A stretch of DNA of 64,000 nucleotides from an uncultured Oscillospiraceae bacterium (GCA_964624925.1 CAZUYE010000002.1:688-64687); one strand, 5' to 3'. Positions 12,154 to 52,608 are shown, numbered from the stretch's first letter. The notes: generated by a model not told the origin, from the letters alone. Made by a program: numbers and translations.

Positions 12154-12169
12154 GTGACTTTCAGACATG

Positions 12170-12204: not shown

Positions 12205-12210
12205 GTGTAC

Positions 12211-31534: not shown

Positions 31535-31536
31535 GC

Positions 31537-32307
31537 ATGGACGAATTCACCCCCCTGCACCTGTTCGACGATGAGCCCACACCCGCTCCCCGGGAGGAGC
31601 CCGTGACGGAGGAGGCCACCCCAGAGGCCGAACCCGCCGCACCCGAGGCCGCCGAGGAGGCCACACCGGTGGAGGAGACCCCGGCAGAGACAGCAGCGGA
31701 AGAACCAGCCCCCGCAGAGCCGGAGCCGTCTCCAGATGCAGCGCTGAGCGCGCAGCTGGAGCAACTGAACCAGACACAGCAGCAGCTTGCGGAGCGCATG
31801 GACGCCCTGAACGAGCTCTTCAGCCAACGGATTCTGTATGCCGCCCATGAGGAGAAGATCGTTGATCAGATGCACCGCGAGCTCCAGAAGTACAAGGAGG
31901 ATCTGTACGCCCAGCTGCTGCGGCCCATCCTGCTGGACATTGTGGAGGTGCGCGACAGCATCCTGCGCATAGCCGCCACCTATCTGGCCCGGCCTGAGGG
32001 CGAGCAGAGCATCCCCAACAAGACCTTCTCCGACTACTCCTATGACCTGCAGGACATTCTGGAAAAGAACAACGTGGAGATCTATCACAGCGCCGGCGGC
32101 GATACCTTCACCCCCATCCGCCAGCGGGTCATCAAAAAGGTCCCCACCGCCGACGAGAGCCTTCATGGCAAGGTGGCAGAGTCCCTGTCCAGTGGCTACA
32201 GCTACGGCGGCAAGATCCTCTCCCCCGAGAAAATCAGCGTATATATCTACGAAAAGCCCGCAGAAAACTGTGAAAATGTGAATGACGAGGTAAGTGAAAA
32301 TGGCTAA
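31537..32307 (+). CDS. GrpE-like nucleotide exchange factor
   Basis: Acidic PEA-rich N-terminus, coiled coil, LLRPILLDIVEVRD, GDTFTPIRQ...KVAESLSSGYSYGGKILSPEKISV; directly upstream of Hsp70. Confidence 0.8.
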   Translation: MDEFTPLHLFDDEPTPAPREEPVTEEATPEAEPAAPEAAEEATPVEETPAETAAEEPAPAEPEPSPDAALSAQLEQLNQTQQQLAERMDALNELFSQRILYAAHEEKIVDQMHRELQKYKEDLYAQLLRPILLDIVEVRDSILRIAATYLARPEGEQSIPNKTFSDYSYDLQDILEKNNVEIYHSAGGDTFTPIRQRVIKKVPTADESLHGKVAESLSSGYSYGGKILSPEKISVYIYEKPAENCENVNDEVSENG

Positions 32308-33949: not shown

Positions 33950-33958
33950 AGACGTGCT

Positions 33959-33997
33959 GCCTGCCACAAGAACCCCCTCTTGTGGCAGGCGCATTTT
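33959..33997 (+). terminator. 13-bp intra-operon hairpin (partial terminator or mRNA stabiliser)
   Basis: GCCTGCCACAAGA-ACCCCC-TCTTGTGGCAGGC then GCATTTT. Confidence 0.65.
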
Positions 33998-34013
33998 ATA
34001 GGGAGGTATCACA

Positions 34014-36140: not shown

Positions 36141-36150
36141 GGAGAGACAT

Positions 36151-39100
36151 ATGGCAGACAACTGGTATATCATTCTGGAGCTGGACTTCGACCCCCCGGT
36201 GGAGGACGAACAGATCATCTCCGCCAAGATCGACGAGCGGGCCAAGTTCTGGTCCACCCATTTCAACGACTTCAAATTCGGCGCACAGTACCGCGCCTGG
36301 CACCAGGGTCTCCCCCGCATCAAAAAGGAGATGCTGGGCCCGGCCAACATCCGCGCCCAGTTGGCCGCCGATGCCTGCACCCAGGTCTATGGACCGGTGG
36401 ATCGGCTGCTGAAAACCATCGGCCGCAAGGGCTACATCACCGGCGAGGAGGGGGACAAGCTCGCGCAGAAGCAGAAGGTCTCTCTGGACGTGGTGAAGCG
36501 CCGGGCCACCAAGCTGGGTATCAAGTGGGACAGCAGCGGCGGCGGCAAGGACTACCAGGCCACCTATGACAAGTATTACAAGGCAAAGCCCCAGAATGCC
36601 GCCTCCTTCGACGGCCTGAAGCCGATGCTGGCTGCCTTCGGCGTGGAGGATCTCTATGCCTTCCTCTATGCTGGCACCGACACCAAGGATGGCAGCAAGC
36701 TGCCCTGCGACAGCCTGCGGCAGCGGAGCGCCGAGCGGAAAAAGAACGAGTTCTTCAAAAACGACAGCGTCAGCGGCACCGGCGCCAAGCTGTGCGGCCA
36801 GTGTGAGCTCACCTTCAAGGACGAGAGCAGCAAGGCAGTCTATGACCAGTATCTGGAGTATGTCCGCCGCCGGGCCATTCTGGACGATGCCCGGAACATC
36901 GCGGACATCTCCGGTACGCTGAGCAACGAGGAGTACGACGTATACATCGGGCAGCTGACCCAGCTGTTCCGCGACCGCAAGCAGGCGGAGGACGTTCTCG
37001 TGGCCTTCTGCAAGGTGGAGAAGATCACCTGCCCGGCCATCCAGGCAGAGCGACCCAAGCTCAACGTAAAGGTATGCCGCTGCGGCTGCATCAATGACGT
37101 GTCCGACGGCCGGCGGGTGTGCAGCAACTGCGGATTGGAGCTGGAGATCAAGTGCCCCAAGTGTGGCACCGTCAACGATGCCAACATCAAGGTCTGCAAG
37201 TGCGGCTTCCGCTTTGAGAACCTCGACCGGGCCCTGGCCTTGTGCGAACAGGCGGAACACGCCATCGATGCCCTGGAGCTCACTGTGGCCCGGGCCCATC
37301 TCAGCGACGCCGGGCGCTACTGGCCCGGCAGCAGCCGGGTGCAGGCCCTGGAGGGCCGCCTGCGGGAGGTGGAGCAGCGTGTGGGCCGCGAGGTAAGCAA
37401 GCTGCGCAGCGCCATGCAGGAAAAGCACTACTGCGAGGCCCGCAGCCTGTATGCCGGTATCCGCAAGCTGTTTTCCGGCTATTCCGACGCCGCCATGGAG
37501 GAGGAGATCAGCCAGGCCATCGCCAAGGCCCAAGCCCTGCTGAGTCAGGCCAAGGCGGCCCGGGTGGAGAAGGATGTGTTTGAGCTGTGCGCCCGGGCCT
37601 ATGAGCAGTGCGCCGACCTGCCCGGTGTGAAGGAGCTGATGCCGCCGCCCGCGGCGGTGACGGGTCTGCGCGTCACGCCGGATCCCCTGAGCCGCAGCAA
37701 CCGTGTCTCCTGGCAGGGCAGCAGCGACCGCTCCATCCGCTATGTAGTCGTGCGCAGCGCCACCGGCTGGATCCGGCAGATCGCGGAGGGGGAGGTCATC
37801 TACCGCGGCAGCGCCTCCACCTACGCCGACGGCGGTATCAAGCCCGGCCTGACCTATTACTACAATGTGTTTGCCGAACGTGCCGGTGTGTGCTCCCCGG
37901 CGGACAAGGGCGCGTCGGCGGTCAATCTGTTCGAGATCTCCCATGTGGCCCTGACGGCGGCGGATGCCTCGCTGCGGCTGTCCTGGGATCCCTTGCCCGA
38001 AAACGCCACCGCCGAGCTCTATGAGCTCTCCGGTGGCAGCAAGAAGTACATCGCCTCCACCTCCTCCGACTGCTATCTGCTCTCCGGCCTGCGCAACGGC
38101 GTCAGCTATTCTTATCAGGTGCAGCTGGCCTATCAGGTGGACGGCAAAAAGCAGCTCACCCCCGGCGTGAGCAAAAGCGGTGTGCCCGACTGCCCGCCGG
38201 AGCCCATCGACACCCTGCGGGTCAGGGCCGGGCAGGACGACAGCTTTGAGGCCGTGTGGACCCAGGAGGGGAACCTGGATGTTCGCCTGTTCTGCACCAC
38301 CAAGAAACCCGACCATCTCCCCGGGGACATCGTTCCCCTGTCGGAGCTGGAACGGGAGATGCGGCCTCTGCAGCAGCGGCCCCTGTCCCCGGCCGCCCAG
38401 CGTGAGCTCAAGCCCGGTCAGCGGGGCGCGTCCTTCCAGCACAGCGGCACGGAGCTGCTGTATGTCACCGCCGTGGTGGTGAAGTCCGGATCCGCCGTAT
38501 TTGGCTCCCTGGCCCGGGCCTGCAAGGGAGAGACGGTACAGATCAGCGGCATACAGCCGGTAAACGGGAAGCTCCACATCTACATGACCGTGCCGCCCAC
38601 GGCCACGGGCTTCGTGGTGCTCTACCGCTTCGACCAATTCCCCACGGAGCTGGGCGATCAGCAGGCCACCCGCCGCTACGTCCCCCTGAAGCAGTATCAG
38701 CTCAACAGCGCCATCGTGCTGGACAGCCCGGAGCCCCGGCGCTACTACGTCTCCGTCTTTGCCGAGTTCCGCCGCGACGGGGATAAGGACTACTCCGCCG
38801 GCGCGGACTACCTGTTCGACAACTCGCCCCGGGAGAACATCACCTACTCCATCGCGGTCAACCGCCCGCTGCTGGGTGAGAAGCACATTATGCTGGAGTT
38901 TGAGGCGGCGCATCCGTCCTTTGAACTGCCCGCCATCGACATCATGTCCGCCGTGGGGAACGTGCCGATGTTCAAGGCATCGGCACGGCTGCTGCACAGC
39001 ATCCCGGCCCAACACGTGGACGGCAGTCTGCGCGTGAAGATCCCCCTGCCCAAGGGCCTGGCCCGGGGCACCTATATCAAGGCCTTTTTGCAGGATGAAA

Positions 39101-39159
39101 AGGCACAGGCAGGTCATCAGCTGCGCCTGAAGCTGCACTCCAGCTATCAAATCAGTTAA
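36151..39159 (+). CDS. 1002-aa multidomain protein: degenerate J-like helices, double Zn ribbon, TPR-like helices, FN3-like repeats
   Basis: DNWYIILEL, FKDESSKAVYDQYL; CRCG..CSNCG..CPKCG..CKCG; VSWQ..YADGGIKPGLTYYYNVFA and LSWD..LRNGVSYSYQV. Confidence 0.7.
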   Translation: MADNWYIILELDFDPPVEDEQIISAKIDERAKFWSTHFNDFKFGAQYRAWHQGLPRIKKEMLGPANIRAQLAADACTQVYGPVDRLLKTIGRKGYITGEEGDKLAQKQKVSLDVVKRRATKLGIKWDSSGGGKDYQATYDKYYKAKPQNAASFDGLKPMLAAFGVEDLYAFLYAGTDTKDGSKLPCDSLRQRSAERKKNEFFKNDSVSGTGAKLCGQCELTFKDESSKAVYDQYLEYVRRRAILDDARNIADISGTLSNEEYDVYIGQLTQLFRDRKQAEDVLVAFCKVEKITCPAIQAERPKLNVKVCRCGCINDVSDGRRVCSNCGLELEIKCPKCGTVNDANIKVCKCGFRFENLDRALALCEQAEHAIDALELTVARAHLSDAGRYWPGSSRVQALEGRLREVEQRVGREVSKLRSAMQEKHYCEARSLYAGIRKLFSGYSDAAMEEEISQAIAKAQALLSQAKAARVEKDVFELCARAYEQCADLPGVKELMPPPAAVTGLRVTPDPLSRSNRVSWQGSSDRSIRYVVVRSATGWIRQIAEGEVIYRGSASTYADGGIKPGLTYYYNVFAERAGVCSPADKGASAVNLFEISHVALTAADASLRLSWDPLPENATAELYELSGGSKKYIASTSSDCYLLSGLRNGVSYSYQVQLAYQVDGKKQLTPGVSKSGVPDCPPEPIDTLRVRAGQDDSFEAVWTQEGNLDVRLFCTTKKPDHLPGDIVPLSELEREMRPLQQRPLSPAAQRELKPGQRGASFQHSGTELLYVTAVVVKSGSAVFGSLARACKGETVQISGIQPVNGKLHIYMTVPPTATGFVVLYRFDQFPTELGDQQATRRYVPLKQYQLNSAIVLDSPEPRRYYVSVFAEFRRDGDKDYSAGADYLFDNSPRENITYSIAVNRPLLGEKHIMLEFEAAHPSFELPAIDIMSAVGNVPMFKASARLLHSIPAQHVDGSLRVKIPLPKGLARGTYIKAFLQDEKAQAGHQLRLKLHSSYQIS

Positions 39160-39172
39160 AGGAGGCCCCGTC

Positions 39173-40390
39173 ATGGGAATGAAAACCACCTTCATCTGCC
39201 CCTATTGCTTTGAAAAGCGCAAGCTGTCTGAGGTACAGTTCCGCTGCACCAACCGCCGCTGCGCCGATTTCGACGACTTGGAGATGACCCGCTACGAAAA
39301 CGGTAATCTCAAAATGCCCAAAAAGGGCAAGAAAACCTTCTCCGTGCCCGCCAAGAACGCCTTCTCCGTGCCCGCCTCCGCCAAGTGCCCGGAACCGAAC
39401 TGCGGCTGCACCACCTACAAGCGGATTTGCCCCGCCTGCCACAACGAGCTGCCCGAGAGCACCCTGGCCGGACGGGATATGATCATCTCCGTGGTGGGCT
39501 CCCGCGCCACCGGCAAGAGTCACTTCGTGGGCGTTATCATCAAGGAGCTCCGCGACCGCATCTCCGTCAGCTTCGACGGCGCCCTGGAGGGCTTTGGCGA
39601 CAGCTACCAGCGCTGGCAGGAGAGCTTTGCCAACAACCTCTATGACCGCGGGCAGAAGCTGGAGCTGACCAAAAGCAGCATGCAGAGCGTCAACAACGGT
39701 GCCTATCGCCCGCTGATTTTCAAGCTGAAGCTGCGCCACAAGGCCCTATTCAAGGAGTCCATTGACAGCTTCACCATCGTCTTCTTCGACACCGCCGGTG
39801 AGGATCTCAACGACGAGGACACCATGAGCACCGTCAACAAGTATATTTACAACTCCTCCGGCATCATCTTCCTGCTGGATCCCATGCAGATCCCGGACGT
39901 GGCCAACCAGCTGCCTGAGGAGACGGTACAGCGGGCCGCCGCCATCGACCGCCGCACAGCCGCCCAGGCCGACGACATCATGACCCGCGTATCCCGCCTG
40001 ATCCGCAAGGCCAACCACCTGTCCGAGGGCAGCAAGATCGATATCCCCGTGGCCGCCGTGTTCTCCAAGTTCGACGCCATCGAGGGCATCGTCCCCTCCG
40101 ACTGCACCGTTCACAGCCCCAGCCCCCACTGCCAGGAGCGACGCTTTGACCTGTCCGACTGGCACAATGTCAACTCCGAGATCCTGGCTCTGCTACAGGA
40201 GTGGGGAGCCGACGCCTTCATCTCCCAGCTGAAAACCAACTACAGCAATTTCTCCTACTTTGCCGTCTCCGCCCTGGGCCTGCACAACAACCCCGACAAC
40301 GCCGGACGCATTCAGCGTCCCCGGCCCCACCGCATTGAGGATCCGTTCCTGTGGCTTCTCAAGGAAAACGGCGTGATCAAGGCCAAGTGA
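39173..40390 (+). CDS. Soluble Zn-ribbon TRAFAC GTPase (DO-GTPase2-like)
   Basis: CPYC, CPACHNELP, G1 GSRATGKS, G3 DTAGE, G4 SKFD, G5 VSALG, IEDPFLWLL. Confidence 0.85.
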   Translation: MGMKTTFICPYCFEKRKLSEVQFRCTNRRCADFDDLEMTRYENGNLKMPKKGKKTFSVPAKNAFSVPASAKCPEPNCGCTTYKRICPACHNELPESTLAGRDMIISVVGSRATGKSHFVGVIIKELRDRISVSFDGALEGFGDSYQRWQESFANNLYDRGQKLELTKSSMQSVNNGAYRPLIFKLKLRHKALFKESIDSFTIVFFDTAGEDLNDEDTMSTVNKYIYNSSGIIFLLDPMQIPDVANQLPEETVQRAAAIDRRTAAQADDIMTRVSRLIRKANHLSEGSKIDIPVAAVFSKFDAIEGIVPSDCTVHSPSPHCQERRFDLSDWHNVNSEILALLQEWGADAFISQLKTNYSNFSYFAVSALGLHNNPDNAGRIQRPRPHRIEDPFLWLLKENGVIKAK

Positions 40391-40418
40391 GCCTATTTCA
40401 TCGGAAGAGGTGACAACG

Positions 40419-43040
40419 ATGCCCTTACATCAAATCATCTATACCTCCTGTATGCGGGGCATACGGGGCGTCAACGACGGCCAGCAGGTCTTCTCCTACG
40501 ACGTGGCCTTCCCGGATCCCGATAACGATGAGGTCAAGAGTCTCTTTTCCTACCAGCCGCCGCAGCTGGAACTGGGCCCCGACCAGCTCATGACGGATGA
40601 GCTGGCCCGCACATTGCCCCGCTCCTTCACCTATCGCCGGCTGGACAACGGGATGAGCACCCTGTCCCAGAATGTCTATCTGGGCCGGGACTACTCCGGC
40701 GGCGCCTCCCGCTTCGGCAACCATCTGAGCCATGTGGTGCTGGCGGAGGAGGATCTGCCCTGCTACCCCTGCGAGCTCTATGGCGGCGGGCTGCTGCGGG
40801 ATCACATGGAGTTTGCGGAGGTCAACAACCCCGACCGACCCGACTTTTTGCCCGAGCCCGAGCTGCAGCGGGGCTATGTGGTGGATCCCGACGAGGTGGA
40901 GCACTTTCTGGAATTCGGCCAACGCAAGGAGCTGTTCAAGCAGATGCTCTGCGCCGTGCTGTCCTATGAGTCCGCCCGCAAGCGGCTGGTGATCTGTGAC
41001 GAGCCGGAGAACATCCTCCTGTGGATCGCCGCCATCGAGTACGCCCTGCCTCTGCCGACGGCCCTGGACATCAACTTCACCACCTATGAGTATGACCCGG
41101 AGCTGTCCGCCTCCCAAATCTGCGGCGTGGTGCCCCGGGGCACCCACTACACGGCCCAGAGCCGTACGCAGCACTTCGTCTTCGACTTCTACGACGGGTA
41201 CTACGAGGAGCTGGAGCTGGACGGCCCCTTCTTCGACTTCCTGGACATCGTCTCCTATGACAGCCTCCGAGATTTCCACCGCTTCCTCACCGAGGGCTAC
41301 CGCTACCGCAAGGCCGACGAAGAGCTCTACGATGCCTACCGCCTGTACGATCTGCTGAGCATCGGCCTGGACGGCGTGGAGACGGGGGATCTGCGCCGGG
41401 CCCTGACCTTTGCCCAGCGATACGCCCTGCCCGGTGAGAAGCTGCGGATCTTCCGCTGCCTGCTGGAGCAAAAGGACGTGCTGCTGCACATGGAGCCCGA
41501 TAGCTTCCTGCTCCTGCTGCGCTATGTACTCTCCCTATACGATGAGCTGGCGCCGGAGCAGCGCAGCGAGGTGCACGATGTCGCCGTGGATCGGGTGCTG
41601 TATGCCTTCCTCCGCTGCGGCGGGGACAAGGAAGCCTTCACTGCCTTCTACAAGGACATGGCCGCCGCCTGCGAACAGGGCGGCTTCCGCCTGGCCTCCC
41701 AGCTGATGCAGCCCGACAGCCGCAAGAAGCTCTTTGGCGTGCTACAGGCCGACAGCGACCCCTGGCAGGTCGTCTTTATCGTCCAGGTGGTCTCCGCCTA
41801 TGTGCGCGAGCAGCGCGTGCCCCTGCGTGAGCTGGCCCCCGACACGCCGCTGGGCCAGACCTACGGCGGGCTTCTACAGGCCGTGTGCGGCCAGGGCAGC
41901 CAGAGTGCCCGCCTCCTGCTCAGCAGTATCCAGGATGCCTTTGTCGACGACTGCGACTACCTGGTTCACATGACGCTGTATCTGGAGCAGCTGCTGCCAC
42001 CCGGCAGCGAACAAGAAACAGCGGCCCTATGGTCTTATCTGGAGACACTGCTGCTGCGGCAGGGCCCGTCCTATTTCGACCGCGCCTGCGGCATACTGGC
42101 CGACGCGCAGCGCTATGAGTGCCTGAGTCATCTGTTCCTCCGAGCCCTGGCCCAGACGCACTCCGCTGACGAGGCCCAGAAGCTCTTCCGCCGCCACTGG
42201 CGGGACTTCCCCGCCATGGATGCGGCCTACGATCAACAGTATGGCGACCAGCTGCTGCGCAGCTACTTCGACCGTCTGCTGCTCTGTGACAGCAGCGATG
42301 CCTACCAGCCTAAGCGCAAGCTCTTTGATCTGCTCTTTGCCCATCGCCGGGATGTGGACATCGTGCCCGAGCTGGTGCGGGAGCTGCTGCGGCCCATCCC
42401 CTATGGAGCCCTGGAGCCGGAGGATGCGCAGCTGGTCAAAAACGCCTTCGGCTACCTCTACAACGACCTGCGCCGGGAGGTGAAGGGCAAGCTCCTGCTG
42501 CTGGTCATCGGCCTGACGCTGGAACAGTGCCGGGATACCAACCAGCTGCGGGACGCCACCGGTAAGCTGCGCCGCCTGACCCAGGAGAACCCGGCGGATC
42601 TCACCCCGCTGACGGAGCGGGGCGTGCAGGACTACTTCGACTGGCTGCTGCCCGGTGCCTGCGCGCTGTGTCAGCATACCGGCGACCTGGCCGACCTGTA
42701 CGAGCTGTTTGCCATGCCCCAGGGCATCGCCGTCATCTTCTTCGCCTCCTGCGCCCGCTGCTTCCTCAAGCAGAGCCGCAGCGACCGGGACTACGACGGC
42801 TTCTGCCAGTTCCTGGGTCTGGCCTTCGACCGGGGCACGCCCCGGATCCGTCAGGAGCTGGGCGCGGTGCTCCGCAAGCTCAGCAAGCAGCGCCTGACCG
42901 ACCTGGATGCCGCGGTGCGGGTCATGTATCAGCATGACCGCCTGGCCCTGCGGGACTGGGACGAGATCCTGCAAACAGCCCAGGCCGCCACCCCCATTCT
43001 CAGCGGCCTGTCCAGCCTGTTCAAGCGAAAAAAAGACTGA
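40419..43040 (+). CDS. GAP1-N2-like GTPase-associated protein with long helical C-terminus
   Basis: N-terminal QIIYTSC..G...GQQV, YLGRDY..RFGNHLSH, WIAAI..LP..A..INFTTY; adjacent to GTPase. Start 40410 or 40419. Confidence 0.7.
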   Translation: MPLHQIIYTSCMRGIRGVNDGQQVFSYDVAFPDPDNDEVKSLFSYQPPQLELGPDQLMTDELARTLPRSFTYRRLDNGMSTLSQNVYLGRDYSGGASRFGNHLSHVVLAEEDLPCYPCELYGGGLLRDHMEFAEVNNPDRPDFLPEPELQRGYVVDPDEVEHFLEFGQRKELFKQMLCAVLSYESARKRLVICDEPENILLWIAAIEYALPLPTALDINFTTYEYDPELSASQICGVVPRGTHYTAQSRTQHFVFDFYDGYYEELELDGPFFDFLDIVSYDSLRDFHRFLTEGYRYRKADEELYDAYRLYDLLSIGLDGVETGDLRRALTFAQRYALPGEKLRIFRCLLEQKDVLLHMEPDSFLLLLRYVLSLYDELAPEQRSEVHDVAVDRVLYAFLRCGGDKEAFTAFYKDMAAACEQGGFRLASQLMQPDSRKKLFGVLQADSDPWQVVFIVQVVSAYVREQRVPLRELAPDTPLGQTYGGLLQAVCGQGSQSARLLLSSIQDAFVDDCDYLVHMTLYLEQLLPPGSEQETAALWSYLETLLLRQGPSYFDRACGILADAQRYECLSHLFLRALAQTHSADEAQKLFRRHWRDFPAMDAAYDQQYGDQLLRSYFDRLLLCDSSDAYQPKRKLFDLLFAHRRDVDIVPELVRELLRPIPYGALEPEDAQLVKNAFGYLYNDLRREVKGKLLLLVIGLTLEQCRDTNQLRDATGKLRRLTQENPADLTPLTERGVQDYFDWLLPGACALCQHTGDLADLYELFAMPQGIAVIFFASCARCFLKQSRSDRDYDGFCQFLGLAFDRGTPRIRQELGAVLRKLSKQRLTDLDAAVRVMYQHDRLALRDWDEILQTAQAATPILSGLSSLFKRKKD

Positions 43041-43094
43041 TTTACCCATCTGTACCTCAAAACCATTTGAATAAAAAGAAAAGGAGATATCATT

Positions 43095-43265
43095 ATGCCT
43101 AATTCCTGGGAACTGACCGACGAGCAGCGCGAGGAGATCAATCGCCGCAACAAGGAGATCGGCGCGGAGTACAACCCCGAGACCGGCAAAAAATGGAACA
43201 ACACGGAGAACACCGGTGACGGCGAAACCACGGACTCCCGCGAGGAAAAAGAGCGCGTCCGCTGA
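43095..43265 (+). CDS. 56-aa hydrophilic peptide (not in ORF track)
   Basis: RBS AAGGAG; MPNSWELTDEQREEINRRNKEIGAEYNPETGKKWNNTENTGDGETTDSREEKERVR; fills operon gap. Confidence 0.75.
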   Translation: MPNSWELTDEQREEINRRNKEIGAEYNPETGKKWNNTENTGDGETTDSREEKERVR

Positions 43266-43290: not shown

Positions 43291-46200
43291 ATGAGCTATG
43301 AGCAAAAGACCGGCGAACTGATGACCCGTGCCACCCAGATCATGAGCAGCGGCATGGAGCTGGTGGATCTGTTTGTCAACAAGAACTACCTCATCGACCT
43401 GGACAAGTGCCAGCCGGTGCCCATGGAGCCCGGCCAGCGTTCTTTTTCCTATATGTCCCTGTATGAGATCAGCAAGATTGTCTATGACAGGGACGAAAAT
43501 ATCAATGACAAGCTGGTCAGCGTATACAGCGCCCTCTCCAACTTTGGCAGCACGGCGCTGCTGGTGCTGTTCAGCGACGCAAACGGGGTGAAGTTCTATC
43601 TAGGCACCCGGGACACCCGCCAGCCCAATGTGGCCCGGGAGATCCTGAAAAAGAGCCTGCGGGGCAACTTCCCCGGCATCGAGATCAAGGAGCAGGTCTC
43701 CAGCCATGTGGCCCGCCTGCTGGAGGGCCACATCCCCGATGTCTACTCCAACCGGGCCGTCTCCGCCGTGTCCATCGTGCCCAGCCCCCGTGACGACGAC
43801 AAGGCACATTTTGTCCAGGGCCTGGAGAAGTTCATTGACTCCATGTCCGGCGAGAGCTACACGGCGGTGTTTGTCTCCTCCCCCCTCAGCAAGTCCGAGC
43901 TGGAGGCCAAAAAGCGGGGCTATGAGGAGCTCTACTCCGCCCTGTCCCAGTGCGCCCAAGTGAACCTGACCTACAGTGAAAACGACAGCGAGGCCATCGC
44001 CCGGGGCATCAGCGACAGTTTCTCCACCGCCATCAACGAGGGCATCAGCGACACCACTGGCACCAACACCAGCACCGGCAGCTCCGACTCCCGCTCCCGC
44101 AACCACGGCAGCAGCTTCGGCCTGTTCGGCATGGGGCACAGCTCCGGCAGCGGCCGCGCCAAAACCACCACCAGCAACTCCGGCAGCTCCAGCAGCCATG
44201 CCACCACCCGTTCCGAGTCGGAGACCAAGGGGAAAACCACCTCCGACACCACCACGACCACCAACGGCACCACCTCCACCATCGCCCTGACCCGGCAGAA
44301 CAAAACCGTACAGGCCCTGCTGGGCCGCATCGACGAGCAGCTGGAGCGGATCAAGAACTGCGAGTCCTATGGTCTGTGGGACAGCGCCTGCTACTTCATC
44401 GCCGAGAGCCAGGAGACCGCCCTGGTGGCGGCCAACACCTTCAAGGCCATCGTGGCCGGCGAGAAGACCTCCGTGGAGAACTCCTTCATCAACCTCTGGG
44501 ACAACGAGTATGAACACGCCGACAACAGTCTCATGGTCATGGACTATCTGCGCTACGGGCAGCACCCCCGCTTCCGCTATCTGCCAGCCGCTGGCAGCAG
44601 CGGCTATACCGAGCAGATCGTCACCCCCGCCAGCCTCATCAGCGGTCTGGAGCTGCCCGTTCTGATGGGCCTGCCCCACAAGTCCGTCAGCGGTGTCACC
44701 TCCGTCTCCTCTGCAGAATTCGGACGCAATGTCTTTTCCAAGGTCAGCGCCCGGAGTTACCGGAACATCGACCTGGGCGCCATTTACCACATGGGCGAGG
44801 TGTTCGGGGGCAGCCGCGTCCGCCTGGATCTAGAGAGCCTGTCCGCCCACTGCTTCATCACCGGCTCCACCGGCTCTGGCAAGTCCAACACCACCTACAA
44901 GATCATCGAGGAACTGGTGGCCGAGAAGAACGGCGTGAAGTTCCTGGTCATCGAGCCCGCCAAGGGCGAATATAAGCTGGCCTTCGGCGGTATGCCCGGC
45001 GTGAACATCTTCACCACCAACCCCAAGTATTACAATATGCTCAGCATCAACCCCTTTGCCTTCCACGAGGAGGTACACGTGCTGGAGCACCTGGATCGCC
45101 TCATCGAGATCTTCAGCGCCTGCTGGCCCCTGTACGCGGCCATGCCCGCCCTGCTGAAGGCCTCCTTTGAACAGGCTTACATCCGCCACGGCTGGGATCT
45201 GAACCACTCCATCCACATCGATCGCGGCAACGGCAAGTTTCCCTCCTTCCGGGATGTGGTGGAGATCCTCCCGGAACTGCTGAACAAGTCCGAGTTCTCC
45301 GCCGAGACCCGGGGCGACTACATCGGCTCCCTGGTCACCCGGGTGGAGTCCCTGACCAACGGCCTTCTGGGCCAGATCTTCACCGGCGCCGCCGTGGAGG
45401 ATACCGTTCTCTTTGACGAGAACACCATCGTCGACCTCAGCCGCATCGGCTCTGCGGAGACCAAGGCGCTGCTGATGGGCGTGCTGGTGCTCAAGCTCAG
45501 CGAATACCGCCAGAGCACCGCCACCGGCACCAACAGTCTGCTCAAGCACGTCACCATCCTGGAGGAGGCCCACAATCTGCTCAAGTGCACCTCCGTCGAG
45601 CAGGGCCAGGAGTCCTCCAACGTCCAGGGCAAATCCGTGGAGATGATCGGCAACTCCATTGCGGAAATGCGCAGCTATGGCGAGGGCTTCATCATCGTAG
45701 ATCAATCCCCCTCCGCCGTGGATATCTCTGCCATCAAGAACACCAATACCAAGATCGTCATGCGCCTGCCCGAGTCCGGCGACCGGGAGGCCGTTGGCCA
45801 GGCCATCGGCCTCAGCGAGGAGCAGATCCTGGAGCTGAGCCGCCTGGATATGGGCGTGGCGGCGGTGTATCAGAACAACTGGCTGGAGGCCGTTCTCACC
45901 AAGATCGACAAGAGCAGCGACCACTACGCCGTCAAGTCCGTCCCGGTCAACGACCGCCAGGAGCAGCTGTGTCTGCTGGGCGAGCTGCTGGGCGAGCTGG
46001 TGTCGCAGCAGGACAGCAGCGACTTCAATATGTCCTGGTTCAACTCCATCCTCAACCGCTCCCGCGTGCCGGAGTATCTGAAGACCCGCTACCGCCGCTA
46101 CCTCCTGGACTACCAGGCCCAGTGCCGCGGCAAGCAGAAGAACCGGGCCTTCTCGACCCTGGTGTGGCAGCTGCTGAACTGCGGCGATGTGTTCCGTATG

Positions 46201-46428
46201 TTCGAGGACAAGCTGCCACCGGTTGCCCGGAAGAAGACGGATATCAACCAGGACTATCGCCGCCGATGCAACGAGTGGGCCGATCTTGTGTATGACCAAC
46301 TGCCCCTCTACGCCGACTTTTACGACAAGAAGACCCGCGACACGGTTTTTATGAGCCTTCTGCTTCACAAGATCGACACAGAGGCCCACAACACGCAGTA
46401 CAAGCTGGTGCTGTACTGCATCGGATAA
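43291..46428 (+). CDS. HerA/FtsK/VirB4-superfamily ATPase (DUF87-like) with large N-terminal domain
   Basis: HCFITGSTGSGKS, VIEPAKGEY, Walker B ILEEAH, EMRSYG, IIVDQSP, TKIVMRL; S/T-rich insert. Confidence 0.87.
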   Translation: MSYEQKTGELMTRATQIMSSGMELVDLFVNKNYLIDLDKCQPVPMEPGQRSFSYMSLYEISKIVYDRDENINDKLVSVYSALSNFGSTALLVLFSDANGVKFYLGTRDTRQPNVAREILKKSLRGNFPGIEIKEQVSSHVARLLEGHIPDVYSNRAVSAVSIVPSPRDDDKAHFVQGLEKFIDSMSGESYTAVFVSSPLSKSELEAKKRGYEELYSALSQCAQVNLTYSENDSEAIARGISDSFSTAINEGISDTTGTNTSTGSSDSRSRNHGSSFGLFGMGHSSGSGRAKTTTSNSGSSSSHATTRSESETKGKTTSDTTTTTNGTTSTIALTRQNKTVQALLGRIDEQLERIKNCESYGLWDSACYFIAESQETALVAANTFKAIVAGEKTSVENSFINLWDNEYEHADNSLMVMDYLRYGQHPRFRYLPAAGSSGYTEQIVTPASLISGLELPVLMGLPHKSVSGVTSVSSAEFGRNVFSKVSARSYRNIDLGAIYHMGEVFGGSRVRLDLESLSAHCFITGSTGSGKSNTTYKIIEELVAEKNGVKFLVIEPAKGEYKLAFGGMPGVNIFTTNPKYYNMLSINPFAFHEEVHVLEHLDRLIEIFSACWPLYAAMPALLKASFEQAYIRHGWDLNHSIHIDRGNGKFPSFRDVVEILPELLNKSEFSAETRGDYIGSLVTRVESLTNGLLGQIFTGAAVEDTVLFDENTIVDLSRIGSAETKALLMGVLVLKLSEYRQSTATGTNSLLKHVTILEEAHNLLKCTSVEQGQESSNVQGKSVEMIGNSIAEMRSYGEGFIIVDQSPSAVDISAIKNTNTKIVMRLPESGDREAVGQAIGLSEEQILELSRLDMGVAAVYQNNWLEAVLTKIDKSSDHYAVKSVPVNDRQEQLCLLGELLGELVSQQDSSDFNMSWFNSILNRSRVPEYLKTRYRRYLLDYQAQCRGKQKNRAFSTLVWQLLNCGDVFRMFEDKLPPVARKKTDINQDYRRRCNEWADLVYDQLPLYADFYDKKTRDTVFMSLLLHKIDTEAHNTQYKLVLYCIG

Positions 46429-46439
46429 GGAGAATCCAT

Positions 46440-46673
46440 ATGTCACAGTATCAGGACAGCCGCCAGGGAGGCACGGATCCGGAGCTCATGGCTGAGCTGG
46501 ACGGCAAGTACCGCCAGTACCGGGAGGGTGACGAACCCTCCGACCGCCAGAGGCAGTTGGATGAGCTGTACGCCCTGCGCGCCGAGCTTCTGCAGCACAA
46601 GGGGGGACAGGAGAGCGACGACGAGGATCCCGCACCGCCAGAGAAGACCCTGGTTCTGCGTCGCCACAGGTGA
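46440..46673 (+). CDS. 77-aa acidic peptide with basic C-tail
   Basis: RBS AAGGAG; shares motif with the toxin N-terminus. Confidence 0.75.
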   Translation: MSQYQDSRQGGTDPELMAELDGKYRQYREGDEPSDRQRQLDELYALRAELLQHKGGQESDDEDPAPPEKTLVLRRHR

Positions 46674-46679
46674 CCGCCC

Positions 46680-47705
46680 ATGCTTACCATTGCCTATCAG
46701 CAGCTGAACCCGGCGGAGAAGACGCTCTATGAGCGCTTCAGCGCCGCCTTCCATCGCCATGCCACCAGCATCGACGCCGGCGGCGTTGGCCGGAATGTGG
46801 ATGCCATGAAGGTGCTGCTGGCCGTCTTGGGGGATGAGCCCGCCGTCACCTACTTCGACCGCACCCAGCTGCGCCGCAGTGCATCTCTTTTGGGCGGACT
46901 GCAGCTCCATCTCATCGGGGCCCTCTCCCCCGCCCGGGCCCGCCAGAAGGACGCAGAGCTAGAGGCCGCCCGGGTTCGCGCCCTGGAGGAGATCGGGCTG
47001 CTGAACCCCATCACCGGCTACGATAAGCTCATCTGTATCTATGAGTACCTCCAGGATCACGTCCGCTATGACCAACAGGAGCTGGAGGCCTGCTGCCGCC
47101 TGGGCCGCAGCCCCAACCCCGACGCGCACAATGCTTATGGCTCCCTGGTCAAGGGCTCCGGCGTGTGCGACGGCATCGCCTCTGCTTTCTGTCTGCTGGC
47201 CCAGTCCATGGGCTTTCCCTGCACCGTGGTCGGCGGCGAGGCCACCTTCCTGTCCACCGGCTTTTCCGAGCACTCCTGGAACGTGCTGCAGATCGGCCCT
47301 CGCTTTTACCATGTAGATGCCACCTGGGATGTCAACCGCAAAGCCACCAGCGGCGAATACGCCTATGACTACTTCTGCGTCAGTGACGACACCGTGAGTC
47401 ACGACCACCAGTGGCCGCTGCAGGCCGTCCCGGCCTGCACCCACGAGGACGCATCGTTTTACCGGAAGAGCGGCTGCTTTGCCAACAACCTCACCCAGCT
47501 GGAGGAAATCTTCACCCGCTATGCCAAGAGCCGCCAAACCGTAATACGGGCCCGGCTGGCCGAGGGCATCGCCATTCCGGCCCCGGAGGAGCAGCACCTG
47601 GCCTCCCGCCTGCAGCGTGCAGCATCTGCCGCAGGCCGCCACGGCTCCTTCCGCTTCAGCTGGAACCCCCGCACCCGCTGCTTTTTTGCCAAATTTGAAT
47701 CATAG
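46680..47705 (+). CDS. Transglutaminase-like (papain-fold) protein
   Basis: Triad GVCDGIA / HSWN / HVDATWD; no signal peptide. Confidence 0.88.
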   Translation: MLTIAYQQLNPAEKTLYERFSAAFHRHATSIDAGGVGRNVDAMKVLLAVLGDEPAVTYFDRTQLRRSASLLGGLQLHLIGALSPARARQKDAELEAARVRALEEIGLLNPITGYDKLICIYEYLQDHVRYDQQELEACCRLGRSPNPDAHNAYGSLVKGSGVCDGIASAFCLLAQSMGFPCTVVGGEATFLSTGFSEHSWNVLQIGPRFYHVDATWDVNRKATSGEYAYDYFCVSDDTVSHDHQWPLQAVPACTHEDASFYRKSGCFANNLTQLEEIFTRYAKSRQTVIRARLAEGIAIPAPEEQHLASRLQRAASAAGRHGSFRFSWNPRTRCFFAKFES

Positions 47706-47716
47706 GAAGAGAGAAG

Positions 47717-49204
47717 ATGAAACAAGACAAGACCCAGCCGGCGAAAAAGAGTTACTTTTTCGGCCCCGGCTTCCAGGACATCGGCGCGGCCATCAAAACC
47801 TCCTGGCAGCGCAACGCCCAGAGCGCCCGGCGCTACTATGAGCGCTACGGCGAAAAAGGCCTCATGAGCTTCCAAGGCGTATATTACCTGTTCTGCGCCC
47901 TGTCGGTGGTGACCTTCGGCACCATCTTCTTTGCCGCTATCAGCGCCGTGATGCTGACGGTGGTGTCCGTGTTCTTCATCGCGGTCTACCTGGGCTTCAG
48001 CGCCGTCTGGCTCTTTGACCGGGCCTATCTCACCCGCCACAAGATCTTCACCGCCTGCGGTGAGTGCAAAAGCAAGTTCCTCATCCCCACCTATCTCTGT
48101 CCCAACTGCGGCACCCGGCACTCCAACTTGACCCCCGGGGCCTACGGTATCCTGCACCGCACCTGCAACTGCGGGCAGAAGCTGCCCGCTACCTTCTTCG
48201 GCGGCCGCCGCAAGCTCCGGGCCATCTGCCCCCGCTGCTTCGAGGCGGGCCGGGCCACCTTCCTCAACGACCGGGAGAGCCGCCCCCTCTGCATCCCCGT
48301 AGTGGGTGGTCGCTCCGTGGGAAAAACAGCCTACATCACCGCCTTTTCCAAGCGCTTTGTGGAGTTCGTCGCGCCCCAGAATGGTCTGGAGGTCGAGTTT
48401 TACGACCGCGCCAAGGAGACCATGTATGCCGAGATCAAGTCGGACTATGCCCGGGGCAGCACCCGCATGACCGCCCGCTCCATGGATCTCACCCGGCCCA
48501 GCTCCATCTCCTTCAGCTTCTTCGTCAAGCACAAGTCCCTGAAGCCCGAGCGCCTGGTGCACATCTATGACATCGCCGGCGAAGTGTTCACCGACAGCAG
48601 CGAAAACGAGGTGCAGCAGCAGTATGAATACTGCCAGGGCATCATCTTCATTCTGGATCCCTTTGCCATCCCCACCGTCCGCGCCCGCTATGGCCACCTC
48701 CTGAACGCCGTGGACGCGGCCAGCATCGGCAAGGCAGACATCAACGGCGTCATCGACGTGTTCATCAACAAGCTCCGGGAGGTTACCGGCCTGACGGATC
48801 AGAAGATGTATCAGGTGCCTATCGCCGTGGTCATCGGCAAGACCGACTCCGCCGGTCTGCGGGAGCTGTTTTCCGACGAGCAGGTGGAGGAGCTGATGTA
48901 CCGCTTCCCCCGGGGAAAGATCTCCCGCAGCGACGCGCTGGACTATCTCTGCCGCCGTTTCCTCATCGATAACGACATGGAGAGCGTGGTCAATGCCATC
49001 ACTCTCCGCTTCAAAACCAACCGCTTCTTCGCGGCCAGTGCCATCGGCCACAGCCGCGATGCCGGGCCCTATAACCCCACGGGGGTACTGGAGCCGGTGG
49101 AGTGGATCTGCACCCAGGCCGACCCCCAGCTGGCGGCCCTGTGGGTCAAGGGGCAGTACGGCAAAAAGCCCCTGACGGAGATTCCCGCGGAAAGAGAGGG
49201 TTAA
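47717..49204 (+). CDS. Second membrane-anchored Zn-ribbon GTPase (paralog of 29688)
   Basis: QPAKKSYFF, 2 TM, GGRSVGKT, DIAGE, GKTD, ASAIGH. Confidence 0.88.
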   Translation: MKQDKTQPAKKSYFFGPGFQDIGAAIKTSWQRNAQSARRYYERYGEKGLMSFQGVYYLFCALSVVTFGTIFFAAISAVMLTVVSVFFIAVYLGFSAVWLFDRAYLTRHKIFTACGECKSKFLIPTYLCPNCGTRHSNLTPGAYGILHRTCNCGQKLPATFFGGRRKLRAICPRCFEAGRATFLNDRESRPLCIPVVGGRSVGKTAYITAFSKRFVEFVAPQNGLEVEFYDRAKETMYAEIKSDYARGSTRMTARSMDLTRPSSISFSFFVKHKSLKPERLVHIYDIAGEVFTDSSENEVQQQYEYCQGIIFILDPFAIPTVRARYGHLLNAVDAASIGKADINGVIDVFINKLREVTGLTDQKMYQVPIAVVIGKTDSAGLRELFSDEQVEELMYRFPRGKISRSDALDYLCRRFLIDNDMESVVNAITLRFKTNRFFAASAIGHSRDAGPYNPTGVLEPVEWICTQADPQLAALWVKGQYGKKPLTEIPAEREG

Positions 49205-49207
49205 GCC

Positions 49208-49423
49208 ATGTTTGAGATTCTTTTCTATATTGTTCTGATTATCATCATCGCCGGTCTCATCATGGTGGGTACCAACATCCTCTATGACCTGGCTGCCGCC
49301 GTGCTCCCCTTTGCCGCCGTGCTGCTGATCGTGGTAGGGCTGGTGGTGGGTCTGGTGGAGGCCGTGCGCAACACCTTCTCCGCCTATAAGGACGTGTACG
49401 GGAAGGGAGGAAAGACGAAATGA
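49208..49423 (+). CDS. Small 2-TM membrane protein (71 aa)
   Basis: Hydrophobic hairpin plus amphipathic basic tail; stop overlaps next gene. Confidence 0.75.
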   Translation: MFEILFYIVLIIIIAGLIMVGTNILYDLAAAVLPFAAVLLIVVGLVVGLVEAVRNTFSAYKDVYGKGGKTK

Positions 49424-50196
49424 TGACGTTTTTCCGCGACCTCTGGGCGCAGCTGCTGGACTACCTCTCTCTCTATGAAAAGCTCATCACCGGGAGCTAT
49501 TACGGCGACCTCTTTGGCCGCTACTTCTCCTTCAGCGGCTTCATCGTGGGCCTGATCTTCGTGCTGCTGGTGTATTTTTCCAGCACCGACGCCAACAAAA
49601 AGACCGGCTTTTTCAAGGTGCTGCCCTTCATCGCCGTGATCAACAGCTGCGCCGTGCTGCTGCTTTTCTTCGGCGGCGATCTGCACCAGGGCTATGTCTT
49701 CCAGGACGTGGACGCCCTCTATAACTACCCAGACAATCTCCTCTCCGGCTTTTTGCTGACGCTGGTGCTTTGCTCCTGCTACCGGGGCATGGGCGGCCGG
49801 GCCTTCCTGTTCGGCCTGTCTGCCCACATCGCCCTGCCCCTGCTGCATCTGCGGGATATCGGCCAGTTCAACGACTTTCTGCCCTTCCTGTATCTGCTGC
49901 TGCGGCTGCTGCTGGTGGGCTTTGTCTGCCTCATCATCAGCCACCGCCGATACTTCTTCACCAGCTGGATCTGGTACTTCGGCTTCCATATGCTCCTGCG
50001 CACGGCGGCCTACTTCCTGCCCCTTCTGTGCCGGGAGCTGGAGCTCCAGACCGCGTACTACCCCGGCTACACCGTCCGCAGTGCCCTGCGCTATTTCTCC
50101 GGCTTCACCGTGGATGCCATCGCCTTCCTGGTGGTGCTGGCCTTTGCCATCGTATTTGAAAAGGCCGTCCTGCGCAGACCCAAAAGAGCCCTGTAA
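49420..50196 (+). CDS. Multi-pass membrane protein
   Basis: About 7 hydrophobic segments; ATGA overlap with previous gene. Confidence 0.75.
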   Translation: MMTFFRDLWAQLLDYLSLYEKLITGSYYGDLFGRYFSFSGFIVGLIFVLLVYFSSTDANKKTGFFKVLPFIAVINSCAVLLLFFGGDLHQGYVFQDVDALYNYPDNLLSGFLLTLVLCSCYRGMGGRAFLFGLSAHIALPLLHLRDIGQFNDFLPFLYLLLRLLLVGFVCLIISHRRYFFTSWIWYFGFHMLLRTAAYFLPLLCRELELQTAYYPGYTVRSALRYFSGFTVDAIAFLVVLAFAIVFEKAVLRRPKRAL

Positions 50197-50214
50197 TCCC
50201 TTCGGAGGTGCTGT

Positions 50215-50586
50215 ATGAGAACCGTCGGCAATATACTGTGGATCCTCTTTGGCGGCGCGCTGCTGGCCCTGCTGTGGGCCCTGGCCGGGCTGCTGTGCTG
50301 CCTGACGGTGGTGGGGATCCCCCTGGGCCTGCAGTGCTTCAAGTTCGCAGGCTTTGTCCTGCGCCCCTTTGGCCGCACTGTGGTCTACAGCAGCCGCACC
50401 GGCCATTTTCTGGTGAATCTGCTGTGGCTGCTGCTGTGCGGCTGGGAGCTGGCCGTGGCATCCCTCTGCGTGGGGGCACTGTGGTGCCTGACCATCGTGG
50501 GCATCCCCTTCGGCCTGCAGAGCATCAAATTCGCCCAGCTGGCCGCCATGCCCTTCGGGGCCCAGGTGGTTCGGGCCCCCGTGTGA
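50215..50586 (+). CDS. YccF-domain inner membrane protein
   Basis: Duplicated GNILWILFGG...CLTVVGIPLG..FK.A...PFG unit. Confidence 0.9.
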   Translation: MRTVGNILWILFGGALLALLWALAGLLCCLTVVGIPLGLQCFKFAGFVLRPFGRTVVYSSRTGHFLVNLLWLLLCGWELAVASLCVGALWCLTIVGIPFGLQSIKFAQLAAMPFGAQVVRAPV

Positions 50587-50616
50587 TATGCGATCTGTGC
50601 GAAAGGAGGTATTCCC

Positions 50617-51300
50617 ATGCGTGATGCAGGCAGCGATGTCAGTTCCAGCCCGGAAAACGACGTCCGCGATGTAAACGAGACCCATCCGCCCGAGGCGGAA
50701 CAGCCGGATGACGAGCTGTCCGCCGAGCTGGACAGCAAGTACGACGAATATATTCAGGAGGGCAAGCTCTACTCCTTCGAAAAGTCGGATGACAAGCTGG
50801 AGGACGAGGATGAGAACCCCTATCAGCACTACATCGACGAGGGCGAGGTCAACGAGCGCCCCCCGGAGGGCCTCACCGACGTGGAAAAGACCAGCCTGAA
50901 GGAGGAGACCGGCTGGTCAGATGAGGTGGTCAACTCCATGCGCTCCCCGGAGGAGGCGGCGATCTACAAGAACGCCAACCTGAAGGAGGCAGAGATCGAC
51001 GGCCGCCCCTGCCTGATCCGTGAGGATATCCCCATGGATCAAAAGGACGAGTTTGGCCGCACCAACCGCCAGCGCATGGAAAACGGCAACGCGCCCCTGA
51101 CCGCCTCCGGGGAAACGGTGGAGCTCCACCACATCGGCCAGCGGCAGGACAGCCCCCTGGCCGAGCTGACCACCCAGGAACACCGCGGCAAGGGCAACGA
51201 CGCCGTTATGCACGACAAGAACGTCCAGTCGGAGATCGATCGGAGCGCGTTCGCCACCGAGCGCAAGCACCACTGGGAGAGCCGTGCGGAATCCGCATGA
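50617..51300 (+). CDS. LHH-family HNH/EndoVII nuclease toxin with acidic N-terminal leader
   Basis: TNRQRMENGNAP...VELHHIGQRQDSPLAELTTQEH...F..ERKHHWE.RA. Confidence 0.92.
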   Translation: MRDAGSDVSSSPENDVRDVNETHPPEAEQPDDELSAELDSKYDEYIQEGKLYSFEKSDDKLEDEDENPYQHYIDEGEVNERPPEGLTDVEKTSLKEETGWSDEVVNSMRSPEEAAIYKNANLKEAEIDGRPCLIREDIPMDQKDEFGRTNRQRMENGNAPLTASGETVELHHIGQRQDSPLAELTTQEHRGKGNDAVMHDKNVQSEIDRSAFATERKHHWESRAESA

Positions 51301-51829: not shown

Positions 51830-51905
51830 GCGCGGTTAGCTCAGCTGGTAGAGCACATGCTTGACGTGCATGGGGTCACAGGTTCGAGTCCTGTACCGCG
51901 CACCA
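51830..51905 (+). tRNA. tRNA-Val(GAC)
   Basis: 76-nt cloverleaf: acceptor GCGCGGT/ACCGCGC, anticodon stem CATGC/GCATG with GAC at 51863-51865, GGTTCGAGTCC, encoded CCA. Confidence 0.97.
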
Positions 51906-51966
51906 TCCTCAAAAGCCCTGAAAACACTACGTTTTCGGGGCTTTCGTTATTTTGACGAACTTGCAG
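51858..51966 (+). repeat. attL-like 109-bp direct repeat
   Basis: Identical to 56344-56452; starts in the tRNA anticodon arm and includes the tRNA terminator. Confidence 0.93.
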
Positions 51967-52071
51967 CATTACCCGCTTGGCCGGGTGTGTCATTTTCGGC
52001 CCAAAAATACGACATTTCGATTACGACAAGAGAGGCAGCACCGCATTTTTATGGTGCTGCCTCTCTTTGTC

Positions 52072-52452: not shown

Positions 52453-52507
52453 GCTATCACCTCTTTGCTCCATTGTACCAGTTATTCCCGACTGGTGCAA
52501 TCTTTTT

Positions 52508-52584: not shown

Positions 52585-52608
52585 GTGCTATACGGTTCAG
52601 TTATCATT

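Follow-up and report, generated by a model that had tools for sequence, protein, structure and literature searches.

A 64,000-nucleotide (nt) stretch of DNA from an uncultured Oscillospiraceae bacterium (GCA_964624925.1 CAZUYE010000002.1:688-64687; hereafter the window) was compared with related loci to characterize a motif shared by two of its predicted proteins. The plus strand of the window holds one long operon that runs from a DO-GTPase2 gene (29688) through a SUKH immunity gene (51715). One protein is a 77-amino-acid (aa) peptide encoded between a HerA/FtsK-superfamily ATPase and a transglutaminase-like (TGase-like) enzyme, and the other is an LHH nuclease toxin at the operon end, which carries the motif in an acidic N-terminal leader. 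The peptide is a predicted paralogue of the toxin leader, conserved and without a toxin domain. The leader-bearing genes are predicted to encode polymorphic toxins with a new, operon-specific N-terminal leader that matches no known trafficking type. The motif is probably the core of a system-specific N-terminal address tag by which the operon machinery recognises its toxins. Feature coordinates are collected in Table 1.

A motif shared by the peptide and the toxin leader

A sequence-only reading of the window had paired the segments DPELMAELDGKYRQYREG in the peptide (nt 46476-46529) and DDELSAELDSKYDEYIQEG in the toxin (nt 50707-50763). Both are exact in translation, and 10 of 15 positions are identical (BLASTP, E = 7e-4 for this single pair). 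The observed Smith-Waterman score of 54 was equalled in 23–46 of 5000 composition-matched shuffles (0.5–0.9%), and the best match to the peptide among the window's 540 six-frame open reading frames (ORFs) is the toxin. Taken alone, without orthologues, the pair of segments is only suggestive and would fail multiple testing; orthologues were examined for this reason.

With toxin repeats of other loci as its sole input, one profile recovered the positional peptide orthologue of locus L009 (E = 3.9e-6 among 24,045 ORFs). Against the window's genome, that profile ranked the peptide second of 29,603 ORFs at E = 1.2, which is not significant by itself. A second profile, built from 15 peptide orthologues with the window sequence excluded, recovered both the peptide (3e-14) and the toxin leader (1.4e-3) from the 29,603 six-frame ORFs of the window's genome, with the next match at E = 9.8. 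Because this peptide-only profile recovers the leader, and because the alignment reaches upstream of the motif, the searches show peptide and leader to be homologous over ~40 residues, as judged by sequence. The motif is kept in toxin leaders and in peptide orthologues across orthologous loci, and these orthologues settle the matter: the sequence comparisons confirm that the shared motif is real.

The sequence-only reading had also seen a repeat of the core, PYQHYIDEG (aa 68-76), in the toxin. In every alignment column this segment lines up with the final repeat (ELDKKYNEYIDEG) of homologues that have three, and it is interpreted on that basis as a decayed copy of the motif, but it scores nothing alone.

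Leader and peptide families

In toxins of other loci the motif occurs in one to three copies with the consensus [DE]x[DE][FLI]xxELDxxYxxY[LIM]xxG. The leaders are rich in Ser, Glu, and Asp and usually start with MSE(I/F)xGxEV. Alignment of the leaders (A2) shows D31, E37, and L38 to be invariant and D39, Y42, and Y45 to be at least 90% conserved. An AlphaFold2 (AF2) model of the toxin has predicted local distance difference test (pLDDT) values below 50 for aa 1-31 and 48-87, which are modelled as disordered, a helix at aa 32-47, and a globular part from aa 88 (pLDDT ~90). No Pfam family was found on toxin aa 1-148 at E < 0.01, and the translation of the acidic N-terminus has no hydrophobic stretch or signal sequence. 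Pfam and the translation likewise gave no N-terminal domain of a known trafficking type on the toxin (signal peptide, WXG/LXG, PAAR, two-partner secretion, MuF, and others).

At least 17 variants of the peptide were identified, 72–94 aa in length and always in the gap between the ATPase and TGase-like genes (slot 1). Their genes are found in loci L009, L095, L097, L098, L099-L106, L131, L136, and L145, with more in protein collections. Four parts are present in all peptides: the motif (D.DFE.ELD.K[YC]..Y), a coiled-coil-like stretch, an acidic tract, and a basic tail, (E/Q)K(V/T)LxLxRHR. The position of the motif is constant among peptide orthologues. In the window, the peptide stop codon lies 6 nt from the TGase-like start. 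No Pfam family covers the 77-aa peptide.

Linkage of leader-toxins to the operon

The toxin had been proposed to belong to the operon and not to be a chance neighbour, a proposal that linkage from both sides bears out. Counted from the leader, all eight places with enough sequence ahead of the toxin show it at the 3' terminus of one and the same GAP1-N2/DO-GTPase/Hsp70/HerA/transglutaminase operon. Counted from the ATPase, close loci (72–83% identity) whose contig continues for 6 kb or more beyond the ATPase have a leader-toxin in 9/9 cases, these nine metagenomic contigs amounting to about six non-redundant architectures. A locus ascertained through the TGase-like gene, in Ruminococcus flavefaciens Y1, also has a leader-toxin. 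Gene order in these loci strongly supports the toxin as a predicted part of the operon. Two further candidates from the TGase genome scan (L014 and L015) were set aside as stand-alone TGase homologues without ATPase or leader; only L013 is a true operon.

In the genome of the window the leader profile matched the peptide, the toxin, and no other ORF, and in the 3.7-Mb R. flavefaciens Y1 genome it matched the operon toxin only. Over 400 genomes of the same order it returned the window's two ORFs only; divergent leaders, such as those of genome G111, escape it, so this result speaks to specificity and not to absence elsewhere.

G111 is a species-representative genome with an ATPase 69% identical to that of the window. 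Its locus (L172) has the order ATPase, WHH toxin (leader MSEIHETE...DSELDDNYEAYLQDED), SUKH, TGase-like gene, DO-GTPase2, two membrane proteins, and a 93-aa leader-only ORF. The WHH leader-toxin and SUKH gene occupy the slot between ATPase and TGase-like genes that the peptide holds in the window, and the slot of the window toxin, at the operon end, is filled by the 93-aa ORF, in which the motif occurs twice and a toxin domain is absent. Comparison of the two arrangements indicates that leader genes have two slots, one after the ATPase and one at the operon end, each holding either a toxin or a toxin-less leader.

Such exchange could also reflect common descent without a recognition role. The peptide would then be the surviving 5' fragment of a slot-1 toxin gene, and the leader a solubility aid or a self-inhibiting DNA-mimic tail for basic nucleases. 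G111, with a full toxin-immunity pair in the peptide slot and a leader-only ORF in the terminal slot, fits this explanation, as do the decaying second copy in the window toxin and the strongly acidic leader. We regard it as very improbable, given that at least 17 peptides keep the open frame, motif, coiled coil, and tail down to ~27–40% identity, that the same leader stands ahead of non-nuclease domains, and that conservation extends beyond charge to specific positions (E-L-D, Y, Y).

Toxin domains behind the leader

Homologues of the first 120 residues of the window toxin (P0003-P0013) are all LHH toxins, and wider searches with the leader profile recovered other domains. Over 5.8 billion proteins there were 27 matches, consisting of 22 LHH, 4 WHH/colicin-DNase, and 1 unannotated protein; over 1.84 billion cluster representatives there were 20, each toxin-like or peptide-like. 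Unannotated C-termini also follow the leader in P0043, P0047, and P0048. In R. flavefaciens Y1 the operon ends with a WHH/colicin-DNase toxin (leader MSEINGGEV...DEDFEKELDEKYESKL) and a SUKH gene. A SUKH gene follows the toxin in the window and in L002, L005, L009, L010, L013, L093, L095, and L098, and several loci carry two leader-toxins in tandem. The expectation that the leader would precede diverse toxin domains in this operon thus holds, with LHH, WHH/colicin-DNase, a probable RelA/SpoT-like domain, and several unannotated domains represented, and with an immunity gene behind each. These leader-bearing genes have the predicted architecture of a polymorphic toxin family, in which the motif is the putative core of a system-specific leader.

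The second tandem leader gene of L099 (11659-13091; also present in L102 and L105) encodes 266 aa with a RelA_SpoT match at E = 2e-4, under the Pfam cut-off, and is followed by a gene for an HD_4 hydrolase. The second toxin of L099 therefore has a probable RelA/SpoT-like domain, and the pair looks like a putative alarmone-synthetase toxin with the hydrolase as its immunity protein.

Distant relatives of the ATPase

ATPase homologues at 38–43% identity still have toxin-immunity pairs directly downstream, which suggests that the ATPase-toxin pair may be a portable core. In loci of this type (L138 5750-14603, L144 6888-14258, L135 2348-10529), the ATPase is preceded by a WYL-HTH regulator and by one to three dynamin-like GTPases (alternatively a Sel1/TPR protein), and behind it come a toxin, either WHH or unannotated, and a small downstream gene. 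These loci lack GAP1, Hsp70, and the TGase-like gene.

At an intermediate distance (~63% ATPase identity) is clade B (L113, L121-L123, L132, and L152), with large variable proteins of 282–1189 aa downstream that have no Pfam match save one WHH. Each large protein is followed by one variable ~160-aa gene and then by conserved ~156- and ~210-aa genes (62–74% and 40–60% identity between loci, respectively). The latter two were considered as orphan immunity paralogues and rejected as conserved operon genes, so they provide no argument for export. The clade-B N-termini (DFGDGDGVNDFDxxYxxM) may be a distant variant of the leader.

Candidate receptors and the proposed role of the motif

In all clades, no operon protein accompanies the leader-bearing genes more constantly than the ATPase, which is 71–82% identical across loci. 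Its nearest solved structures are HerA proteins, matched over parts of the core only (E = 5e-7 to 3e-3); PADLOC assigned mad8 (3.9e-21) as well as HerA models, and Pfam also gave FtsK_SpoIIIE and TrwB. The full-length model is poor (mean pLDDT 42) and usable for aa 890-1045 only. No other part of the protein evolves as fast as this C-terminal helical domain, whose identity to clade-B homologues is 28–33% vs ~63% for the whole protein. A VIA-align search with its model returned only generic helical bundles (best Z 8.6) and a poor VirB4 alignment (root-mean-square deviation 15), and no fold was assigned. Other FtsK-like secretion ATPases have substrate-specific C-terminal variants. The constancy of the ATPase as a neighbour and the rapid evolution of this domain make it the favoured candidate receptor for the motif.

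The reading of the motif as a docking signal draws on four observations: a short conserved motif in a disordered leader, interchangeable toxins behind it, restriction to one operon type, and a further copy on a small protein encoded in the operon core. We infer from these a docking function, a receptor, and a hand-off with a direction. The motif would dock the toxin onto the operon machinery, most likely at the variable C-terminal helical domain of the ATPase, and docking would lead to an ATP-dependent hand-off, either export via the membrane block or release and activation inside the cell. The peptide presents the same tag and so would probably bind there too, whether as a competitor, a plug, an adaptor, or a co-substrate. 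The sequence-only reading had proposed a recognition signal for the ATPase or the Hsp70s, with the peptide as a toxin-less substrate, adaptor, or decoy, and the anatomy is compatible with this.

The TGase-like enzyme is a candidate for an alternative receptor or a processing enzyme, with C163, H198, H211, and D213 invariant in 34 sequences. In this alternative the motif would be a recognition or cleavage site for the enzyme, acting as releasing peptidase or cross-linker, or a site for binding of Hsp70 or of the vWA metal ion-dependent adhesion site through the invariant acidic ELD, with the peptide as a pseudo-substrate. The peptide gene immediately precedes that of the TGase-like enzyme, the catalytic Cys, His, and Asp are retained throughout, motif leaders were seen only in loci with both the TGase-like gene and Hsp70-vWA, and proteolytic release of effectors has been proposed for the operon class (PMC7159879). 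We nonetheless judge a processing or chaperone site to be quite unlikely. ATPase homologues keep toxin-immunity neighbours without TGase or Hsp70 (L135, L139, and L144), and no cleavage-site pattern besides the repeats lies between leader and toxin domain. Acidic segments are also poor canonical Hsp70 clients, given the specificity of DnaK.

If the motif is a docking signal, the direction of hand-off can be argued either way. In favour of export are the polymorphic architecture of the toxins, their SUKH immunity genes and tandem cassettes, the membrane block, and HerA/FtsK pumps as a precedent. Kinship to defence-type HerA, an ATPase without transmembrane (TM) segments, the WYL regulators of distant loci, and the view taken in the paper describing the class point toward an intracellular role. 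It is possible, if doubtful, that the HerA-type ATPase, membrane block, and private Hsp70/GrpE form an unrecognised export route for polymorphic toxins in Gram-positive gut bacteria, with the ELDxxYxxY leader as the secretion signal and the 77-aa peptide as a co-secreted or gate-keeping substrate.

Several results weigh against an address tag, or against parts of that model. The binding partner of the motif is itself only inferred. The motif helix is modelled at low confidence (pLDDT ~52) and its hydrophobic moment is not above that of shuffles, so that only the spacing of residues and this weak model speak for an amphipathic helix. L005 and L010 (ATPase-TGase gap of 10–12 nt) and L013 and L093 (no ORF there) have no peptide; these loci are otherwise complete, and the peptide is therefore not essential. 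Within loci, no co-variation was found between the motif of the peptide and that of the toxin (permutation p = 0.17). The linkage counts overstate independence, since almost every locus is metagenomic and some of the strains are near-identical. The nearest relatives of the ATPase by sequence are HerA ATPases from intracellular defence systems, its translation contains no TM segment, and its distant relatives adjoin WYL regulators and dynamin-like GTPases. Toxins beside the 38–43% homologues have no recognisable leader, and the clade-B N-termini match the ELD leader weakly (hhalign E = 0.0065, probability 6%). Finally, most systems of the GAP1-N2 class show no sign of secreted effectors (PMC7159879).

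Comparison with known systems

The window operon is a predicted member of the GAP1-N2 'GTPase-centric' conflict systems with the Hsp70/GrpE theme (Kaur, Burroughs, Iyer, Aravind 2020, PMC7159879). It shares with that theme GAP1 (N2 and M domains), DO-GTPases with Zn ribbons and TM segments, an FN3 protein, Hsp70, and GrpE. For this theme, the text of PMC7159879 makes no mention of a HerA-type ATPase, a TGase-like gene, small ORFs, or leader-bearing toxin-immunity cassettes. No Pfam or PADLOC family covers the peptide, the leader, the GAP1 partners, or the membrane proteins, and none of the literature searched describes the leader, the peptides as a family, or an ATPase-toxin link in GAP1-N2 systems.

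Gram-positive nuclease toxins linked to SUKH genes carry N-terminal domains that address them to HerA/FtsK-superfamily pumps (PMC3113570, PMC3482391). The type VIIb system (LXG/WXG/LDXD, YueA/EssC; PMC3113570, PMC3482391) resembles the window operon in its constant N-terminus, swappable C-terminal toxins, downstream SUKH gene, adjoining HerA/FtsK-superfamily ATPase, and small helical proteins encoded with the toxins. It differs in that its LXG/WXG domain is helical and 100–200 aa long, whereas the leader described here is acidic and disordered around a short motif; Pfam finds LHH and no LXG/WXG100 domain on the toxin, whose leader is modelled as disordered apart from one 16-residue helix. The ATPase lacks EssC/YukA-type features (FHA, TM segments, several FtsK-like domains) in Pfam, which gives a single domain with one DUF87/FtsK_SpoIIIE stretch at aa 499-594. 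No WXG100 protein (PF06013) was matched in the window's genome, which is 80% complete. The neighbouring genes code for GTPases, GAP1, Hsp70s, and the TGase-like enzyme, in contrast to EssA/EssB/EsaA.

Effector-associated domains (EADs; PMC7159879) are similar in that one element is found both on a constant part and on the N-terminus of a variable effector in the same operon, and the motif is indeed at the N-terminus of the operon toxin in all loci examined. EADs are globular, homotypic, and fused to a core protein, whereas here the shared element is a ~20-aa motif in a disordered leader, and its core copy is a free protein of 72–94 aa that is absent from L005, L010, L013, and L093. This likeness leads to the explanation of the peptide as a homotypic adaptor, in which its motif helix would pair with the motif helices of the toxin while its basic tail connects both partners to the ATPase or to a different protein of the core. 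Sharing of one motif between a core-encoded small protein and an effector N-terminus is the EAD architecture (PMC7159879), the basic tail is a second conserved element that the toxins lack, and the one to three motif copies per toxin are as would be expected of multivalent pairing. Such an adaptor would also resemble the small helical partners that complete the LXG targeting signal in type VIIb secretion. Pairing of this kind is unlikely in our view: complete leader-toxin loci dispense with the peptide, which where present stands free and is not fused to a core component, the two motifs show no within-locus co-variation, and the leader is no globular domain but a disordered stretch around a short motif.

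HerA-effector defence systems (Sir2-HerA, DUF4297-HerA; 8xau, 8wiv, 9c1m) likewise place a HerA-family ATPase beside a toxic effector. Similarity to them is weak (E ~1e-7), and the window ATPase has an additional 500-aa N-terminal region and a 165-aa C-terminal helical domain. Unlike those of the defence systems, the effectors here have immunity genes, swappable domains, and a shared leader.

Polymorphic toxins are usually classed by an N-terminal domain that names their handling machine, and the leader fits none of these. An operon class whose function has so far been predicted only computationally gains a defined cargo or effector with a ~20-residue handle, which lends itself to mutation, reporter fusion, and use as bait, so that the question of export vs suicide in GAP1-N2/Hsp70/HerA systems becomes testable. 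The cultured isolate R. flavefaciens Y1 carries the whole locus (NZ_FRCT01000003.1, 64280-85287). Export, if true, would mean a new route of secretion in Firmicutes that are abundant in gut and rumen and would turn a predicted intracellular 'conflict system' into a secretion system; activation, if true, would be a new coupling of toxin-immunity pairs to an immune switch.

Operon layout in the window

Pfam matched HSP70 twice in the operon and DO-GTPase2 at 37.6 and 36.1 bits, with a third copy at 24.1 bits falling under the cut-off. The 56-aa ORF between GAP1 and the ATPase lacks the ELD motif and is thus a second small operon component, unrelated to the 77-aa peptide. Its position is kept in L005, L013, L093, and L097-L106, where it encodes 61–71 aa.

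Table 1. Features of the window operon and of the G111 locus (window positions unless stated otherwise).
Feature	Position	Strand	Basis
Upstream operon core: DO-GTPase2, GrpE, Hsp70, Hsp70-vWA, FN3/Zn-ribbon, GTPase, GAP1, 56-aa peptide	29688..43265	+	Pfam
DO-GTPase2	29688-30803	+	
GrpE	31537-32307	+	Pfam 44.8 bits
Hsp70	32294-33949	+	
Hsp70-vWA	34014-36140	+	
FN3/Zn-ribbon protein	36151-39159	+	fn3 29.7 bits
GTPase	39173-40390	+	
GAP1, N2 and M domains	40410-43040	+	GAP1-N2 60.6 bits, GAP1-M 63.8 bits, both > 24-bit cut-off
56-aa ORF in GAP1-ATPase gap (MPNSWELTDEQREEINRRNKEIG...)	43095-43265	+	
HerA/FtsK-superfamily ATPase, 1045 aa	43291..46428	+	Pfam DUF87 2e-15, FtsK_SpoIIIE 2.8e-6
ATPase C-terminal helical domain, aa 880-1045	45928..46425	+	pLDDT 80-92
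77-aa peptide gene	46440..46673	+	ORF with ribosome-binding site
Shared motif in peptide, aa 13-30, DPELMAELDGKYRQYREG	46476..46529	+	D13, E19 invariant, D21 nearly so (alignment A6)
Basic C-terminal tail of peptide, EKTLVLRRHR, after acidic tract; peptide-specific, absent from toxins	46641..46670	+	Peptide alignments
Transglutaminase-like Cys enzyme	46680..47705	+	Pfam Transglut_core 2.9e-10
TM-anchored Zn-ribbon DO-GTPase2	47717-49204	+	Pfam DO-GTPase2 2.4e-9
71-aa 2-TM protein	49208-49423	+	Hydrophobic segments in translation
258-aa polytopic membrane protein	49420-50196	+	Hydrophobic segments in translation
YccF-family membrane protein	50215-50586	+	Pfam YccF 3.9e-36
LHH (HNH/EndoVII) nuclease toxin, 227 aa	50617..51300	+	Pfam LHH 2.6e-24 on aa 149-225
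Acidic leader, aa 1-87 (29 D/E, 7 K/R)	50617..50877	+	AF2 model, composition
Motif copy 1 in toxin, aa 31-49, DDELSAELDSKYDEYIQEG	50707..50763	+	BLASTP, alignments
Decayed motif copy 2, aa 58-76, DDKLEDEDENPYQHYIDEG	50788..50844	+	Aligns with last repeat of three-repeat homologues
Globular toxin domain: conserved helical pre-region (LKEETGWSDEVV..IYKNA) and LHH core	50878..51297	+	pLDDT ~90 (aa 88-227), alignment A7, Pfam LHH
SUKH-family immunity gene, overlapping toxin stop codon	51284..51715	+	Pfam SUKH_5 3e-13, SUKH_6, SMI1_KNR4
tRNA-Val	51830-51905		
L172 (G111:C38:134000-150000): WHH toxin with leader, and 93-aa ORF	11289-12425 and 7446-7727 (L172)	-	

The membrane block between the TGase-like gene and the toxin (47717..50586) has identical gene order in L010, L097, L098, L099, L101, L102, L106, and L172. 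YccF is also directly upstream of the toxin in L009, L097, L098, L099, and L106. A 138-aa ORF with a GTG start at 50208-50624 was rejected as an out-of-frame shadow of YccF, the real gene there. Shine-Dalgarno sites are present at both motif-bearing genes (AAGGAG for the 77-aa peptide and AAAGGAGG for the toxin). In the region 51830-53562, the tRNA-Val gene comes straight after the immunity gene; beyond it GC content falls from ~0.62 to 0.48, ahead of a gene for a rolling-circle Rep-like protein (REP_ORF2-G2P, 52936-53562). A small element may have integrated here at the tRNA, and the 3' boundary of the operon may be marked there.

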